Part shown: piece by piece, positions 12,001 through 24,000 of the stretch
How positions within the stretch are numbered: the first letter of the stretch is position 1
How the letters are laid out: each line of letters begins with the position of its first letter
NCBI GenBank assembly: GCA_030690305.1
Contig: JAUYHB010000013.1
Location: 5,221 to 69,220, forward strand
Length of the DNA: 64,000 nucleotides
Reading direction: 5' to 3'
Source: a bacterium
Lineage (GTDB): Bacteria > Patescibacteriota > Minisyncoccia > Phycocordibacterales > JAGLPS01
Program-made: the position numbers

Positions 12001-15000
12001 GCCCTAATTTCATTTATGTAGTACTCACCCTGATTTTTGAATTCCGGATTCAGTTGTATCACCTCTTCAATATCTGCAATAGCCAGAGATCGGTTTCCAA
12101 TCTGCAAATAAATACCGGCCCGTGAAAGACGATTACCCGTATCCTGAGGGTCAAGTTCGATTCTTTTTCCCAATATTTCAAGGGCACGGACGTACTCTCC
12201 TTTTGCGGCGTATGCTTGTAAAATTCGGTTGTCAAAATACAGCACTTCTTGCGGAAGAGAGACAAGGAGCTCTTGTTCAAGTTTTTTATCACCGGCATAA
12301 ATGGCACCCATTGCGTAAATGATTTTTGCTGTCAGGAAAGAGGGCTCGAGTTCGTAAGCGGTTTTAAAAACTTCAAGAGATTTGTCATACTCCTTTTTCC
12401 CAAGGTAGGAAGTGCCAAGTTCAAAATATGCGGTTTGTTTTTTAGGCGAAGATTGCGTTGCCTGCGTTGCATACTGTTTCCCTTTATCATAACTGCCGAA
12501 TGCATTAAACGAGACCGCGGCAAAAAGTTGATAACGAGTATCGTTTGGAGTAAGGGCAAGGTGTTTTTCGAGTTCTTGGGCGGACAAATTTGCAAATTGG
12601 ACCTTAATATCGTTTGGAATTGACGGGTTCCGTACAAGAGTTGTCGCAGTTAACGAAAGCTGCTCACGGATTTCCGGACTGCCAAATGAGTTATACGCGA
12701 GGGCCTTTTTGAAATATTCAAGGTTGAGACCAAAGTTGCTGTCTTTTTGAGGTGAGATCGCTTGTATCAGCGCCTTATTTGTTTGAATCGGAATAATGTT
12801 TGCGGTGTACAGTATGAATAACAAAAGAATTGCAGTAACAGCGGAAGTTGTTTGTATACCCCGTTCTTTTACATCAAAAGAAAAGAGGTCCCAATCCTTG
12901 GCCGCAAGGGAGTGGATAAAAGCAAGAACGGAGAAAAACATGAGATAACTTGTCAAATTATCAAAAACGAAAAGATTGTGGAAAAAATAGGCGGCAAACA
13001 AACCGGTGAGAATGCTTTTGTCACTTGAGGACAGGGTTTGTACCCTCCAAAGATACTTTATACCCAACCAAAAAAGAGAAAGGTAAAGGACCGATCCGAA
13101 AATTCCTCCGGCAACCAACCAATCAAGGGCGGCGTTGTGGGTACGGTCAAACCAAGTCTCTTGGTTATACATTCGCGGGTCATAATGTTTGTTGAATACG
13201 TAGTTAAAGCTTTCTTGTCCCCACCCAAAAATCGGACGCTCAAGGAAACCTTTTATCGCCATCGGCCAGACATAATAACGAGCTTGATTGGGTGTATTGC
13301 TTAAAGAAATTTCCGCAAACCGAACAAGGGTAGGATTATTTTTAACAAAAGCCGAATCTTTTATCGTTATAAAACCGAGAACAAGGAAGATAAGCCCTCC
13401 GATAATTCCTAGGGAAATATTTCGGAGAATTTTGTTTTCTTTTTCCTTAAACACAACCAAGCAAGCGGAAAGAAAAATTCCTCCGATAAGACCAAGAATA
13501 GCGCCTCTCGTTTGAGTCTCGTAGAGAACAAAAAGAAGCAAGGGGATTAAAAGCCCATACGCCAAACGAAGTGAGTTACCGCGGGTTCTTATGAGAAGAA
13601 AGAGTGCAATAAAAATATGAAAGACAAGATAAATTGCCAAATACGTCGCATTGCCAAACGTTGCGTCCACGCGCACACCTCCCTGGTTGATGGGAAATTT
13701 CCCCATAAGTTGCAATACCCCGTATATCGCAATCCCCAAACTCGCGACCAAAGACGTATTAAAAAATCTTATCCATAGCTTTTGGGTAGACAACACACTA
13801 CTCATGACCGCAAAAAATACAACCAGGTGAAGAATAGTTATGAGACCTTCCATTCGCTCATAGTTACTCCAGAAACTTTTTGATGGATTTTCTGAAAAAA
13901 TTGCCGATATTGAAAGAGAAACAAGAAAAGCGAGAAGCGCACCGAAAATCCACGAAAATTTCGGACGATATTGTTTATTAAGCAGAAAAAGGACAATCCA
14001 TAGCGCGGCGATTATTTCTACAATAATCCTAAACGTAAAACCCTTACCAGTGATAAACGGAAAGAACATTGAACGGTCAACCAAAAACGGAATAAAGAGA
14101 ATGCCAAACAGACCGATAAAAATAAGGGCTTTTAGTACTTTTTCGATTTGTGTATTCGTAGGCATATATGTAAAAGATACGTACAGAATAGTACAAAAGC
14201 AACTGAAAAACAAACACTCGAGACGGTATACTTGTTTCAACATAGAAAAAACGATAGTGTAACAGTAATATACGAACCAGCAATGGTAGGAAAAACAAAA
14301 ATGACCCCTAAAAGTAAAACTTCTTCCCCTAAAAAAGCTCTTATTACGGGTATTACCGGACAAGATGGCTCGTATCTCGCCGAACTGCTACTGGAAAAGG
14401 GATATGAGGTCCATGGTCTCATACGGCGCGCGAGCGCATTTAACACAAGCCGCATTGATCATTTATACAGGGACCCTCATATTAATGGTATAAAAATGTA
14501 CTTACACTACGGGGACCTTTCTGATGGAAGCAATTTGAATAGAGTTCTTGAAAAGATACATCCTGATGAAATCTATCATCTTGGAGCTCAAAGTCATGTG
14601 AGGGTCAGTTTTGATATACCCGAGTATACAGGGGATGTAACCGGTCTTGGAACACTTCGCATTCTTGATGCGATACGGGATACCGGTATACAGACACGGT
14701 TTTACCAAGCGTCATCCAGTGAGATGTTTGGCAACGCTTCAGAAATACCGATTAAAGAAACGACACCCTTTTATCCCCGCTCACCCTACGGCTGCGCCAA
14801 AGTATACGCATACTGGATAACGAGAAATTATCGGGAAAGCTACAATCTGTTCGCCACAAACGGCATTTTATTCAATCACGAATCCCCACGTCGCGGGGAA
14901 ACTTTTGTGACAAGGAAAATTACGCGTGGGCTCGCGCGCATTAAGCTTGGGATAGACAATAAACTTTTCTTGGGCAATCTTGACGCGAAGCGGGATTGGG

Positions 15001-21000: not shown

Positions 21001-24000
21001 CAGCATGTCAAACACGCGGTTCTTTTTAACTCCGGCGGAAGCGCAAATTTGGCCATGCTTCAGACAGCAAAAAATCTTGGGATACTTAAAGACGGAGACC
21101 AAATTGCTTTCTCCGCGCTTACATGGGCAACAAACGTCATGCCTATTATCCAGCTTGGAATGAAACCTGTCGCCGTGGACTGCGAACCGACAACCTTAAA
21201 TTCCATGTCCAATCATCTCGTAGAAACACTGAAAAAAAATAAAAAGATAAAAGCTTTCTTTATTACAAATGCGCTTGGTTTTGCCGGAGACTTGGGAAAC
21301 ATTAAAAAAATCTGTAAGAAAAACAACATAATCCTTTTTGAAGATAACTGCGAAGGACTCGGGACCGAGCTTCCCGAAGGGAAAACAGGGAGTTTCGGGC
21401 TTGGGGCAAGCTTTTCTTTCTTTGTTGCTCACCATATGTCCACGATTGAAGGAGGAATGGTGGTGACCGATGACGACAATTTCGCCGAAATGCTCCGTAT
21501 TGTCCGCGCCAATGGTTGGGATAGAAACTTGGAAACTCATCAACAAAAGAAGTGGAGAAGCAGACACGGCGTTAAATCTGAATTTCACTCAAAATATTCC
21601 TTTTATGACTTGGGATACAATCTGCGGCCGACGGAAATAACAGGGTTCTTGGGTCTGTACCAACTGGCACTCTTAGATGCAGGTTTGAGAATTAGGGAAG
21701 AGAACCACAACCGTCTTGAGAAAAAATTAAGGGAAAATCCTGACTTTATACCTCTCGACAGAAGTCATGTAAAAAAACTATCCCCTTTTGCCTTTGTGGT
21801 TATATGTAAAACTCCCGAACTGCAGGAAAAATACAAAACCCGTTTCGAAAAAGCGGATATAGAAGTGCGTCCCATAATATCCGGAAATATTCAAAGACAG
21901 CCATTTTATAGAAAATATATCACAGCAAAAATAGCATACCTTCCAGGAGCGGAGTTTCTTCATCACAACGGTTTTTACTGCGGAAATTATCCGGAACTCA
22001 CCGAAAAAGATATTCAGACCATAGAAAACTGTTTAGAAATAAAACAATAAAGAGTCCTTTATGATAATAGTAAATTTAATTGGAGGATTGGGAAACCAGC
22101 TGTTTCAGTACGCCGTCGGGAAACGCGTCGCCCTTGTCAATCAAACGGAATTAAAACTTGATATTTCGGGCTTTGAAACATATAAACTTCACGCATACAG
22201 TCTTCAGCATTTTAATATCGTCGAGCAAATTGCAACGTCAAAGGAGGTCGCTTGGTTTAAAAAATATCAAAAGAAAAAAGGACGCATTTGGTTTTTATAT
22301 AATAGACTCATTGCCAATGATGCTATATATATTCAGGAAAGGGGCTTCCCTCTTAATCAAAAGGTGATGGACTTGAAAAGCCCCGCATACTTGGACGGGT
22401 ACTGGCAAACTGAAAAATATTTTAAACAGATTGAAGACATAATCCGCAAGGAGTTCACGGTAAAAGACGAACTGACCGGCAGAAATAAAGAGGTTGCGGA
22501 AGAAATCAAAAAGACGAGTTCAGTGAGCCTGCATGTCAGACGCGCCGACTATGTGACCAATGCGAGAACAAATGAGCACCATGGCACATGCGACTCTGCG
22601 TACTACAATAAAGCCGTTTCAATAATTGCGGAGAAAGTAGAGACTCCTCATTTTTTTGTTTTTTCAGACGATATGGATTGGGCTAAAAAGAATATTATTC
22701 TCAATTACCCCATCACGTACGTTGACCACAACAGTGCTGCTACAAATTATGAGGACTTGCGTCTGATGAGCTTGTGTAAGCACAACATTATCGCCAATAG
22801 TTCATTCAGCTGGTGGGGAGCGTGGTTAAATAATAATCCGCAAAAAACCATTATCGCGCCGCAGAGATGGTTCCTTACGGATAAAATGGATACGCGCGAT
22901 TTGATACCCAATACCTGGATTAAAATATAAATATATGTGTGGAATATTTGCGGTTGCCAGCTTAAAAGAAGATGTCCCTTTGAAAGGGCTAAATATTGCC
23001 CTTACCTCCTTATCAAAAAGAGGGCCTGATGATCGCGGGATTCTCACGTTCCCCCACTGCGTGCTGGGGCAGACACGCCTTTCAATTATTGACCTTTCAG
23101 GCGGACATCAACCGATGCGTGATAACACATATCCGCTTGCTATTACATTCAACGGAGAAATTTACAACTATAAGGAAATCAAAAAAGAGCTAGAGAAAAA
23201 AGGACATGCTTTTTCTACCAATTCAGACACGGAAGTGATTTTAAAAGCACATAAAGAATATGGCGTTGATTGTTTGAAACACCTAGACGGTATGTTTGCC
23301 TTTGCAATTTGGGATGAGGGGAAGAAGTCTCTTTTTATAGCACGTGATCGATTTGGGAAAAAACCACTCTATTATGCATTTGATAAGCTCGGTAACTTGA
23401 TGATTGCCTCCGAAATAAAAGCGTTATTTGCTTCCGGTCTAATCAAAGGAGAAATAGACCCAGAGGCAATAGACAATTACTTGGCGCTCATGTATATCCC
23501 ACCGTGGAGAACAATATACAAAAATGTTTTTACACTCGCTCCTGCCGAATATGCGCTATACAGGAACGGAAAATTAGAAAAGAAAAAATACTGGGAACTT
23601 GAGTTCAATCCCATTTCTATCGAATACAATGAAGCTAAAGAGGAGATCAAACGGTTATTTACGGAAGCAGTAAAAAAGCGCATGGTAGCAGATGTCGAAA
23701 TAGGAAGCTTTCTTTCCGGTGGAGTTGATTCAACCCTCGTGACAATGTATGCACAAGAATATACCACTCACCCACTTAAAACCTTCTCTCTTGGGTATGG
23801 CAATTATAGAAACGAGCTTCCCTACGCTGAAACCGCATCTACAAAAATTGGCACTGATCATCATACTCTCCAAGCTAATGAAGACCTTACTCATGTGCTC
23901 AAAGAAAGTCTTGCGTACTTTGATGAACCGCATGCGGATTCTTCTGATTTCCCCCAATCCCTTCTCTCACAGTTTGCCGCGCAAAAAGTTAAAGTTGCCT

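Follow-up and report, generated by a model that had tools for sequence, protein, structure and literature searches.

The window (the whole 64-kb stretch of DNA analysed) contains one large surface-glycan locus at approximately 12-59 kb, in which eleven genes extending from gmd to a GT4 glycosyltransferase gene (14283-25879) were found to run in one direction, with gaps of no more than approximately 40 nt or overlaps. The first of these, gmd1 (14283-15380, plus strand), was identified as a GDP-mannose 4,6-dehydratase (TIGR01472, 572.6 bits, cutoff 415). It has two possible ATG starts (14283 and 14301) and 59-60% identity to either E. coli Gmd copy, and its product is predicted to supply GDP-4-keto-6-deoxy-D-mannose. 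An 8-nt overlap joins it to the gene of a 3,5-epimerase/4-reductase of the GDP-L-fucose synthase (GFS) family, Fcl type (15373-16305, plus strand; NF047922, 498.3 bits, cutoff 500). These are followed by the gene of a small HTH_17/excisionase-like protein that may be a regulator (16321-16617, plus strand; PF12728, 43.8 bits), the position of which is kept in six related loci (L002, L003, L011, L019, L062 and L063), and by that of a fused TMD-NBD ABC exporter of MsbA/PglK/HepA-like type (16611-18431, plus strand; ABC_membrane and ABC_tran, with HepA-family and MsbA models at approximately 330 bits), probably a lipid-linked glycan flippase or exporter.

Downstream on the same strand lie genes for two sugar O-methyltransferases, one TylF-like (18470-19261; PF05711, 52.6 bits) and one CmcI/rhamnosyl-O-methyltransferase-like (19285-19968; PF04989, 115 bits), and for a GT2 glycosyltransferase (19970-20869; PF00535, 86.5 bits), whose 3' end overlaps by 4 nt the gene of a predicted ColD-like, PMP-dependent nucleotide-sugar 3-dehydratase (20866-22050; PF01041, 212 bits). 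The block continues with a GT11 glycosyltransferase of the alpha-1,2-fucosyl/colitosyltransferase family (22061-22930; PF01531, 127.5 bits) and an AsnB-like glutamine amidotransferase (22935-24704; Pfam Asn_synthase, 293 bits), and the GT4 glycosyltransferase (24701-25879; Glycos_transf_1) is its last gene. A second, divergent GT11-like glycosyltransferase is encoded at 31726-32673 (plus strand), with a weak PF01531 match (29.2 bits, cutoff 23.9), and has a 49%-identical orthologue in the syntenic Patescibacterial locus L007. The ORFs on which the original prediction of a colitose-like pathway had been built are thereby accounted for as real plus-strand genes, including both of its GT11-like proteins, with gmd and the Fcl-family gene in the same block. 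The window yielded no candidate for the formation of GDP-mannose (ManB/ManC).

The product of 20866-22050 had been proposed to have the DegT fold with a His at the position of the Schiff-base Lys, and the active-site string quoted in support, SFFVAHHMSTIEGG, was located at residues 183-196 of the translation. Alignment with ColD and E1 (HMMER against 2gms and its H188K and H188N mutants, and MAFFT) placed His189 (codon 21430-21432), not a Lys, in the catalytic column, opposite the catalytic His188 of E. coli ColD and His220 of Yersinia E1. The same column is occupied by Lys in the two other DegT paralogues from the window (25982-26947 and 50521-51588, both minus strand), as it is in aminotransferases generally. 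The HH pair was invariant among aligned family members (20 of 20, at 64-80% identity) and was present in 88 of the 89 related-locus ORFs that scored above 150 bits against E. coli ColD. Replacement of Lys by His is a recognised hallmark of 3-dehydratases (PMC8987622; bioRxiv 10.1101/2021.09.04.459008).

A sequence search of the PDB returned ColD as the best match (2gms, E=4.8e-55, 190 bits), with E1 second (E=1.6e-37, 133 bits) and Per at E=8e-28 (101 bits). Foldseek, run on an AF2 model of medium confidence (pLDDT 72, below 50 in the active-site loop 187-194), gave ColD at all of ranks 1-12, with an E-value gap to the aminotransferases of just two to three orders of magnitude, approximately. 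ColD (WbdK) of E. coli O55:H7 (PDB 2GMS, 3B8X, 2R0T and 3GR9), the only characterised ColD, has in common with the window protein the fold-type I DegT fold, the His in the Lys column within 'F-S-x-F-x-x-H-H-x-x-T-x-E-G-G', a dehydratase-specific 'RAxGWxRNL' insertion without cysteines and the lack of an E3 partner. The two proteins differ in being only 33% identical and in the presence of Ala in the window protein where ColD has Ser187, a residue reported as non-conserved across characterised dehydratases (bioRxiv 10.1101/2021.09.04.459008). Furthermore, the window protein belongs to a separate subfamily that is large and highly conserved (60-81% identity across many phyla), with invariant cysteines of its own (C35, C106, C150 and C314) that are absent from E. 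coli ColD. No demonstration of activity for a member of this subfamily was found in the literature, and no NCBIfam equivalog matched the protein, the top model, RfbH, scoring 221 bits (cutoff 423).

E1 (AscC/DdhC/RfbH of Yersinia and Salmonella; PDB 3BCX) shares with the window protein the PMP-dependent 3-deoxygenation chemistry and the His for Lys, but acts as a CDP-6-deoxy-L-threo-D-glycero-4-hexulose 3-dehydrase, a user of CDP-sugars that needs an E3 reductase. It is also approximately 45 residues longer and carries a Cys-rich 2Fe-2S loop, RDCYCAPGCDNTCKK, which aligned with the Cys-free WDRNLETHQQKKWRS of the ColD-like protein. A 2Fe-2S cluster is confined to E1 and SpnQ, while ColD recycles PMP using glutamate (PMC8987622). 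A Pfam scan covering the window ORFs of at least 150 aa and all larger ORFs within 14-36 kb detected no E3-like reductase (FAD_binding_6/NAD_binding_1/Fer2-type), nor did one appear as a conserved neighbour when the neighbours of related loci were clustered. These comparisons support the earlier view of 20866-22050 as a ColD-type PMP-dependent 3-dehydratase rather than an E1-type or aminotransferase-type protein, its predicted activity being that of a GDP-4-keto-6-deoxy-D-mannose 3-dehydratase.

The original prediction had also raised the possibility that the gene called 'fcl' is colC. The 15373-16305 protein was found to match the E. coli GFS structure 1bsv (E=1e-115) and to be 55% identical to E. 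coli Fcl versus 38% to ColC (WbdJ, the GDP-L-colitose synthase of E. coli O55). Phylogeny grouped it with Fcl (79% bootstrap), the ColC clade being separate (100% bootstrap), and clade HMMs scored it at 531 bits for Fcl, 468 for the ColD-adjacent clade and 289 for the E. coli ColC clade. It falls outside both ColD-linked GFS clades (the E. coli ColC type and the larger ColD-adjacent one), which have L80/A207/M280; at these signature positions it has V207 and, as in Fcl, I80 and T280. As a family assignment, colC was rejected in favour of an Fcl type.

A role in the ColC step nevertheless stands as possible. Window protein and ColC are both members of the GFS/SDR family with a Ser/Tyr/Lys triad and a Cys/His pair (equivalents of S107/C109/Y136/K140/H179 are all kept in the former), for which C5 epimerisation and C4 reduction are predicted, and the window has no GFS-family gene other than 15373-16305. 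In five Patescibacteria-type loci (L013, L019, L021, L060 and L068), a gene of the same Fcl-type clade lies directly beside the ColD-like gene, in the order gmd-fcl-colD in L021 and L060, with no second GFS-family gene within 10 kb in any of the five. An Fcl-type gene in the colC position of Patescibacterial relatives, with no second copy, suggests that the 15373-16305 enzyme probably performs the ColC step in addition to forming GDP-fucose; GDP-L-fucose and GDP-L-colitose would both be completed by it. We know of no experiment showing a true Fcl accepting the 3-deoxy substrate.

Comparison of neighbourhoods across 80 related loci from many phyla revealed a GFS-family gene within 10 kb of the ColD-like gene in 72 loci, directly adjacent in 64 and nearly always approximately 0.9-1.0 kb upstream. 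A gmd was found within 10 kb in 28 loci, and a GT11 gene immediately 3' of the ColD-like gene in approximately 38, these GT11 orthologues (42-63% identity) lying approximately 1175 bp after the ColD-like start. Unbiased clustering of the neighbours identified no further conserved partners besides GFS, GT11 and gmd. The colC-colD order of E. coli O55:H7, where gmd and the GT11 alpha-1,2-colitosyltransferase WbgN are also present, matches that of the relatives, and in five loci (L035, L037, L047, L055 and L070) the GFS partner of the ColD-like gene belongs to the E. coli ColC-type clade. The order of reactions put forward originally, from Gmd through ColD and a GFS-family epimerase/reductase to GT11, gains support from this linkage across phyla and from the O55 gene order. 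The window gene differs from most of its relatives, and from colD, in not being adjacent to the GFS gene; unlike that of colD, its host is a Patescibacterium, a group assumed to be without LPS.

The origin of the window from a Patescibacteria (CPR, Paceibacteria-like) genome is supported by SecA, which has Patescibacteria/Paceibacterota as its closest named relatives, and by synteny over 7-12 genes with the Patescibacteria MAG contigs L002 and L007. Five Patescibacteria-type loci (L002, L007, L020, L048 and L062) have CmcI-like and GT2 genes a short way upstream of the ColD-like gene, the Gammaproteobacteria-labelled L011 has GT2 alone there, Flavitalea (L054) has CmcI alone farther upstream, and in L060 and L068 both genes are downstream. 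The AsnB-GT4 order is kept in L007, L011, L060 and L068, with AsnB alone in L048.

The 22061-22930 protein resembles WbgN in being encoded in the cluster of a ColD, and is 34% identical to it, a level that cannot separate colitosyl- from fucosyltransferases; in O55, wbgN and colD are several genes apart, whereas in the window GT11 comes right after the ColD-like gene. Both GDP-L-Col and GDP-L-Fuc serve as donors for WbgN and for human FUT2 (PMC11987014). The window GT11 is predicted to be the transferase for the sugar of the ColD pathway.

We consider it reasonably likely that Gmd, the ColD-like enzyme, the Fcl-type GFS and GT11 form a branched, GDP-mannose-derived deoxysugar pathway making both colitose and fucose. 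Given an exchange of Lys for His that is typical of ColD, colitose, a rare sugar, is probably produced by the cell in addition to fucose; both the GDP-sugar specificity of the ColD-like enzyme and colitose as its eventual product are what we infer from the comparisons above. Gmd1, and probably the gmd2 product (see below), would convert GDP-D-mannose to GDP-4-keto-6-deoxy-D-mannose, which the ColD-like enzyme with PMP would bind as a Schiff base. His189, replacing the usual Lys, would act as general base/acid with expulsion of the 3-OH, and hydrolysis of the enamine would yield GDP-4-keto-3,6-dideoxy-D-mannose and ammonia. Transamination with L-glutamate would turn PLP back into PMP, making an Fe-S cluster or E3 reductase unnecessary. 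The Fcl-type GFS, its triad and epimerisation pair intact, would then epimerise C5 and reduce C4 with NADPH to give GDP-L-colitose, and would also convert the non-dehydrated intermediate to GDP-L-fucose. The 22061-22930 GT11 would add the 3,6-dideoxy-L-hexose, fucose or both to the glycan under assembly, as may the 31726-32673 protein, and the glycan would be further methylated and carried out by the ABC exporter. For an uncultured, ultra-small Patescibacteria bacterium, this represents a sound though fairly ordinary refinement of annotation.

An unlikely alternative is that the product of a ColD-type 3-dehydratase acting on GDP-4-keto-6-deoxymannose is finished by another reductase, either an extended SDR (32670-33614, minus strand; Epimerase domain, 196 bits) or one encoded elsewhere. 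The gmd-fcl pair would then yield GDP-fucose only, and a different 3,6-dideoxyhexose isomer could result, such as a D-series sugar without C5 epimerisation. This would agree with the assignment of the window GFS to the Fcl type on phylogeny, clade HMM scores and signature residues, with the translational coupling of its gene to gmd, 4.5 kb off the ColD-like gene, and with the dedicated ColD-adjacent GFS clades in other phyla, which suggest that specialisation is usually needed. The SDR gene also adjoins the second GT11-like gene and has a counterpart of 69% identity in the syntenic L007. However, L007 is the only locus with a relative at high identity; the SDR falls below the cutoff of every NCBIfam equivalog and in the PDB matches 4,6-dehydratases, epimerases and decarboxylases of a generic kind (E=2e-29 to a GDP-6-deoxy-D-lyxo-4-hexulose reductase). 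Moreover, the GFS family is the sole consistently linked reductase, with no other SDR conserved, and an Fcl-type gene directly adjoins the ColD-like gene in the five Patescibacteria-type loci described.

It is very improbable that the 3-dehydratase uses another nucleotide sugar, namely dTDP-4-keto-6-deoxyglucose from RmlA/RmlB (41692-43491) or a CDP-sugar. RmlA, RmlB and an RmlD-C-methyltransferase fusion are encoded in the same glycan locus, RfbH is the top NCBIfam model, automatic JGI names of relatives are those of E1/CDP enzymes ('CDP-6-deoxy-D-xylo-4-hexulose-3-dehydrase'), and an E1-like gene co-occurs in 11 related loci. Against this, the RfbH score is half of its cutoff, the window rml genes lie 20 kb away on the opposite strand, and RmlA/RmlB are within 10 kb in only 10-11 of the 80 loci versus 72 for GFS and approximately 38 for GT11, both GDP-L-sugar families. 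CDP-type E1 and dTDP-type SpnQ require the 2Fe-2S loop and an E3 partner (PMC8987622), of which the loop is absent here and no E3 was detected among the scanned window ORFs.

Readings of the protein as a conventional sugar aminotransferase, or as an E1-type dehydratase relying on a separately encoded reductase, are hardly credible. In their favour are its DegT fold, the names in most public records ('DegT/DnrJ/EryC1/StrS aminotransferase' or 'EpsN') and the small gap, given above, between ColD and the aminotransferases in the fold search. Against them, the hallmark His is invariant among the 20 aligned family members where both window paralogues keep Lys, the protein lacks the four-Cys 2Fe-2S motif, and neither the scanned window ORFs nor the conserved neighbours included an E3-like gene.

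A second gmd and a Lys-type aminotransferase, both missed by the original prediction, were identified beyond the block. The DegT aminotransferase (DegT2; 25982-26947, minus strand), the first of the paralogues with Lys at the catalytic column, has perosamine synthase among its best PDB matches (E=2e-31). It is accompanied by an unknown ORF of 129 aa (26944-27333, minus strand), gmd2 (27339-28334, minus strand; TIGR01472, 434.7 bits, cutoff 415) and a hexapeptide acyltransferase (acetyltransferase) gene with a Hexapep match (28503-29063, plus strand). The 25982-29063 region probably encodes a GDP-(N-acyl)perosamine-like pathway, which would compete for or share the 4-keto intermediate.

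Comparative genomics provided the strongest evidence for a colitose-type interpretation of the locus, a reading that is supported by the data described below. Relatives of the ColD-like protein, encoded by the DegT-fold ORF at 20866-22050 (+), were sought by pattern in one genome for each GTDB species, giving at least 560 relatives, and the best 80 of these (59-81% identity) were analysed along with their loci (designated by L-numbers, L083 being the O-antigen region of E. coli O55:H7). The subfamily was thus found in at least 560 species-level genomes from more than ten phyla, including cultured Flavobacterium, Chryseobacterium and Mucilaginibacter, with hosts of the best 80 belonging to Patescibacteria, Bacteroidota, Elusimicrobia, Planctomycetota, Leptospira, Prochlorococcus, Proteobacteria and others. 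A gene of the GDP-L-fucose synthase (GFS) family, to which Fcl and ColC belong, lies within 10 kb of the ColD-like gene in 72 of the 80 loci, directly adjoining it in 64 and nearly always being situated approximately 0.9-1.0 kb upstream. A GT11 orthologue was found in approximately 38 of the 80 loci, starting approximately 1175 bp past the start of the ColD-like gene (i.e. immediately downstream), and gmd occurs within 10 kb in 28. When all genes up to 6 kb from the ColD-like gene were clustered without bias, for the best 80 of at least 560 relatives, the clusters recovered were the GFS family (72 loci), GT2 (40), GT11 (39), a Wzt-like ABC ATPase (30), Gmd (23), Wzm (22), AsnB-like (13) and E1-like (11) proteins, with no further conserved partner (reductase, ferredoxin or other) being identified by this clustering.

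In E. coli O55:H7, the colitose synthase gene colC (L083 4864-5787) lies immediately upstream of, and overlaps, the 3-dehydratase gene colD (3701-4867), an order that matches that of the ColD-like family, and the O-antigen cluster also holds gmd and the gene for the GT11 colitosyltransferase WbgN. Together, the neighbourhoods and this comparison place the ColD-like family within the characterised gene logic of colitose, tied to enzymes of GDP-L-sugars and not to those of dTDP- or CDP-sugars. The presence of RmlA and RmlB in the window would allow a dTDP-sugar to be the substrate of the ColD-like enzyme, but this is unlikely, as RmlA/RmlB were found within 10 kb in just 10-11 of the best 80 loci, compared to the 72 with a GFS-family gene.

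The GFS-like/ColD-like/GT11 triad was observed to be kept across Bacteroidota, Planctomycetota, Leptospira, Prochlorococcus and other groups (L005-L081, e.g. L017 9076-11161, L030, L029). Among its cultured carriers, Flavobacterium reichenbachii DSM 21791 (L017), Chryseobacterium aquaticum (L030) and Mucilaginibacter corticis (L029) would permit a direct search for colitose. Outside Patescibacteria, the Wzt-like ATPase and the Wzm-like permease are common neighbours of the triad, approximately 3-4 kb upstream of the ColD-like gene (e.g. L016 6408-7706, L026 4225-5088), and their frequency suggests that polysaccharides dependent on an ABC transporter may be decorated or capped with the sugar; the window, in contrast, carries a fused MsbA/PglK-like exporter. 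The E1-like neighbours, present within 6 kb in 11 of the 80 loci at a median offset of 2.7 kb, are true E1/RfbH-like proteins (e.g. L024 5055-6371, of 438 aa, with the Cys-rich loop RDCYCQPGKDNTCGKRFC). This co-location suggests that CDP- and GDP-derived 3,6-dideoxyhexoses may be produced from one locus in some genomes.

The ColD-like protein was assigned to the fold-type I DegT/DnrJ/EryC1/StrS PLP/PMP enzymes (PF01041, 212 bits, Pfam). Against sequences of the PDB it ranked ColD first (E=4.8e-55, 190 bits), followed by E1 (1.6e-37) and perosamine synthase (8e-28), with ColD of E. coli being the top match by both sequence and fold, at an identity of only 33%. From the family alignment an AlphaFold2 model of medium confidence was obtained (pLDDT 71.9, pTM 0.76), which had a low-confidence active-site loop and was thus used for fold ranking only and not for residue geometry. 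Foldseek with this model placed ColD at ranks 1-12 (E 9e-25 to 6e-23, TM 0.76-0.78) and the first E1 entry at rank 20.

Identity as E1/RfbH, the CDP-sugar 3-dehydrase with a 2Fe-2S cluster, is suggested by the best NCBIfam model for the protein, RfbH (NF011936), but its score of 221 bits is half of the cutoff of 423, and NCBIfam holds no curated ColD model to score against. E1 and SpnQ require a 2Fe-2S cluster and an external reductase, while ColD proceeds by enamine hydrolysis with PMP regenerated by glutamate (PMC8987622). The dehydratase-specific insertion past the catalytic strand is present in the ColD-like protein, reading WDRNLETHQQKKWRS, and is free of Cys, whereas in E1 it reads RDCYCAPGCDNTCKK and bears the 2Fe-2S cysteines. 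No ferredoxin-NAD(P) reductase-type (E3-like) protein was identified with Pfam among the window ORFs of at least 150 aa and all larger ORFs of 14-36 kb, nor was an E3-like gene found among the conserved neighbours of ColD-like genes (neighbour clustering, best 80 of at least 560 relatives). On the basis of the score, the missing Cys loop and the lack of an E3 among the ORFs and neighbours scanned, an E1/RfbH identity was rejected, in agreement with the original prediction, which had favoured the ColD type for want of an E3 partner. Four cysteines (C35, C106, C150 and C314) were observed in the family alignment to be invariant in the ColD-like subfamily and missing from E. coli ColD; these sit outside the region that binds 2Fe-2S in E1.

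The translation of the ColD-like gene contains GASFSFFVAHHMSTIEGG, in which the first His of 'AHH' (His189) pairs with His188 of ColD (HMMER alignment to 2gms and the H188K, H188N and S187N/H188K mutants). With MAFFT, the same column was found to be occupied by His220 in Yersinia E1 and by Lys in both DegT paralogues of the window, 25982-26947 (-) with the motif 'SPHK' and 50521-51588 (-) with 'QAIK', meaning that one of the three DegT genes of the window is a His variant. The DegT fold with His in place of the Schiff-base Lys, as first read from the sequence, was therefore confirmed in these alignments, with no Lys at this position. Both His residues are invariant across 20 aligned ColD-like relatives (64-80% identity), and the HH motif is present in 88 of the 89 ORFs that scored above 150 bits against E. 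coli ColD among the ORFs of the loci of the best 80 of at least 560 relatives. Replacement of Lys by His is a recognised hallmark of nucleotide-sugar 3-dehydratases (PMC8987622; bioRxiv 10.1101/2021.09.04.459008). At the position of ColD Ser187 the protein has Ala, this Ser being reported as not conserved among dehydratases (bioRxiv 10.1101/2021.09.04.459008). A plain aminotransferase was ruled out by the invariant His at the Lys column, with the two window paralogues retaining Lys. The identification of 20866-22050 as a ColD-type enzyme is thus supported, with a predicted activity of 3-deoxygenation of GDP-4-keto-6-deoxymannose, with ammonia release and glutamate recycling of PMP.

The GFS-family gene of the window (15373-16305, +) scored 498.3 bits with NF047922, 1.7 below the cutoff of 500, and its product matches E. 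coli GFS (1bsv, E=1e-115) and shares 55% identity with E. coli Fcl. All five residues of the Ser107/Tyr136/Lys140 triad and the Cys109/His179 epimerisation pair are kept. It had been suggested that this 'fcl' could be colC, with a phylogeny proposed as the check. A neighbour-joining tree (300 bootstraps) was constructed from the window protein, 78 GFS-family ORFs of the compared loci, and Fcl and ColC of E. coli. ColC was found in a separate clade (clade A, 100% support) with mostly Elusimicrobia-type proteins, five of which adjoin a ColD-like gene, and a further clade (clade C, 71% support) contained 54 proteins, all but two directly adjoining a ColD-like gene. The window protein and the other Patescibacteria-type proteins (ten of ten, the window protein included) grouped with E. 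coli Fcl and gmd-adjacent second GFS copies (L027, L040, L073) at 79% support, while a grouping of Patescibacteria with clade C had 0% support. Clade HMMs scored the window protein at 531 bits for Fcl, 468 for clade C and 289 for clade A. Signature residues (E. coli Fcl numbering) were Met280 (54/54 in clade C, 8/8 in clade A), Ala207 (54/54 and 7/8, E. coli ColC itself having Ser) and Leu80 (52/54 and 8/8), these positions being Thr, Pro and Ile in Fcl and Thr280, Val207 and Ile80 in the window protein. By family assignment the gene is therefore Fcl, and the tree, the clade HMMs and the signature residues rule out ColC in this sense. Tyr173 to Phe was dropped as a ColC marker, since Phe also occupies this position in E. 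coli Fcl. In the ColD-adjacent clade C, Met280 and Ala207 are invariant and Cys284, Ile309 and Ser182 nearly so; the clade has the appearance of a second ColC-like lineage, uncharacterised and separate from E. coli ColC.

The gene at 15373-16305 is the sole GFS-family gene within the 64-kb window. In the Patescibacteria-type loci L013, L019, L021, L060 and L068 an Fcl-type gene directly adjoins the ColD-like gene, in the order gmd-fcl-colD in L021 and L060, and these five loci have no second GFS copy within 10 kb. From these arrangements we infer a dual-use Fcl-type enzyme, the parsimonious reading being that, in these reduced genomes, one such enzyme would complete the 4-keto intermediate in its 3-hydroxy as well as its 3-deoxy form.

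All ORFs named in the original prediction were found on the + strand. The gmd gene (GDP-mannose 4,6-dehydratase, 14283-15380, +) scored 572.6 bits with TIGR01472 (cutoff 415), its product sharing 59-60% identity with E. coli Gmd; ATG codons are present at 14283 and 14301, and either is possible as the start. The GFS gene overlaps gmd by 8 nt, and the genes across 14283-25879 all run in one direction, overlapping or separated by approximately 40 nt at most, and are thus very probably a single operon. This looks like a gmd-fcl-colD operon with an HTH gene, an ABC exporter, two methyltransferases and a GT2 inserted between fcl and the ColD-like gene. Of the two proteins previously proposed to be GT11-like, 22061-22930 is a clear member (PF01531, 127.5 bits, cutoff 23.9) with 34% identity to E. 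coli WbgN, and 31726-32673 is a weak match (29.2 bits). The proposed Gmd, ColD and ColC logic is supported by its genes and their association, the GFS member being of Fcl type and not ColC.

Mechanical ORF calls with longest TTG starts placed a Wzy_C/TPR gene (11985-14363, -) in head-to-head overlap of approximately 200 nt with gmd (14148-15380, +); in the Logan gene calls (starts at approximately 14243 and 14283, respectively) there is no overlap, and the longest-ORF starts of both genes are probably wrong. A small HTH_17/excisionase-like ORF (16321-16617), a weak match to a MamR model, lies between fcl and the ABC exporter and may be a regulator. Homologues of this ORF (58-82% identity) were identified upstream of the ColD-like gene in L002, L003, L011, L019, L062 and L063, being directly before an ABC exporter in L002, L019 and L062 also.

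In the proposed pathway, Gmd would convert GDP-mannose to GDP-4-keto-6-deoxymannose, with which the ColD-like enzyme would form a PMP ketimine. His189 would take the C4' proton and help to expel the 3-OH, and hydrolysis would yield GDP-4-keto-3,6-dideoxymannose and ammonia, with PMP restored by glutamate. The Fcl-type enzyme would then perform C5 epimerisation with its Cys/His pair and C4 reduction with its Ser/Tyr/Lys triad to give GDP-L-colitose, GDP-L-fucose being made in parallel, and the GT11 enzyme encoded downstream of the ColD-like gene would transfer the sugar. Either GDP-Col or GDP-Fuc is taken by the GT11 enzymes WbgN and human FUT2 (PMC11987014), and with either donor accepted the donor pool would decide the sugar used. 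A more tentative proposal, leaning slightly towards doubt, is that Patescibacteria possess a minimal branched pathway in which a lone Fcl-type enzyme ends the synthesis of both GDP-L-fucose and GDP-L-colitose and the ColD-like enzyme alone sets the split, with ColD-like proteins being a large subfamily whose annotation is generic or wrong, and colitose-type sugars far more widespread.

The pathway is of a known kind, and understanding of 3,6-dideoxyhexose biosynthesis is unchanged; what is new is a divergent member with a generic or wrong annotation. The host among Patescibacteria and the wide spread of the conserved triad are of note, as is the possibility that one enzyme finishes two GDP-L-sugars, which, if true, would be a small, neat case of pathway economy in reduced genomes. 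Public names for this very large subfamily ('aminotransferase', 'CDP-...-3-dehydrase E1') are generic or wrong and, if the reading is correct, would be corrected by it. Known examples of colitose are a handful of enterobacterial, Vibrio and marine LPS, and no report of colitose in Patescibacteria/CPR was found in the literature searched. If the conserved triad does signify colitose-type 3,6-dideoxy-L-hexoses, these would be far commoner than such LPS examples suggest, and would also occur on bacteria that are assumed to be without LPS. The reading, if correct, yields a testable prediction of surface chemistry for an uncultured CPR bacterium, namely a methylated glycan decorated with L-fucose/L-colitose.

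Assignment of the host was in keeping with the SecA of the window, which is identical to an NCBI MAG protein and whose next relatives, at 79%, 75% and approximately 70% identity, are from Patescibacteria group, Pacebacteria, Parcubacteria and Paceibacterota. Among the best 80 of at least 560 relatives, the closest ColD-like proteins and the best synteny were found on Patescibacteria MAG contigs, with seven genes in order in L002 and twelve in L007. A second gmd (27339-28334, -; TIGR01472, 434.7 bits), missed in the original prediction, is accompanied by the Lys-type DegT gene at 25982-26947 (-), which has perosamine synthase among its best PDB matches, an ORF of 129 aa that matches no family (26944-27333, -) and, adjoining gmd2, a hexapeptide acyltransferase (28503-29063, +). 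The stretch 25982-29063 is probably a GDP-(N-acyl)perosamine-like branch drawing on the same 4-keto intermediate as the ColD-like enzyme. Downstream lies a dTDP-sugar branch with RmlA, RmlB and an RmlD-C-methyltransferase fusion (39629-41677, -), along with a carbamoyltransferase (37160-39043, -), the third DegT and many glycosyltransferases. No ManB/ManC was seen in the window.

Approximately 47 kb of the 64-kb window (approximately 11985-59403) was observed to consist of glycan genes, a very large investment if the genome is small, as is typical of Patescibacteria. This region contains the Wzy_C/TPR ligase-like protein (11985-14363, -), three DegT, two gmd, RmlA/RmlB, an FkbM methyltransferase, a PMT_2 protein (46996-48366, -) and at least 12 glycosyltransferases. 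After the glycan locus are ORFs for a surface protein with PKD/lamin-tail domains (59400-60575, -) and a TraG/TrwB-like type IV coupling protein (60580-62313, -).
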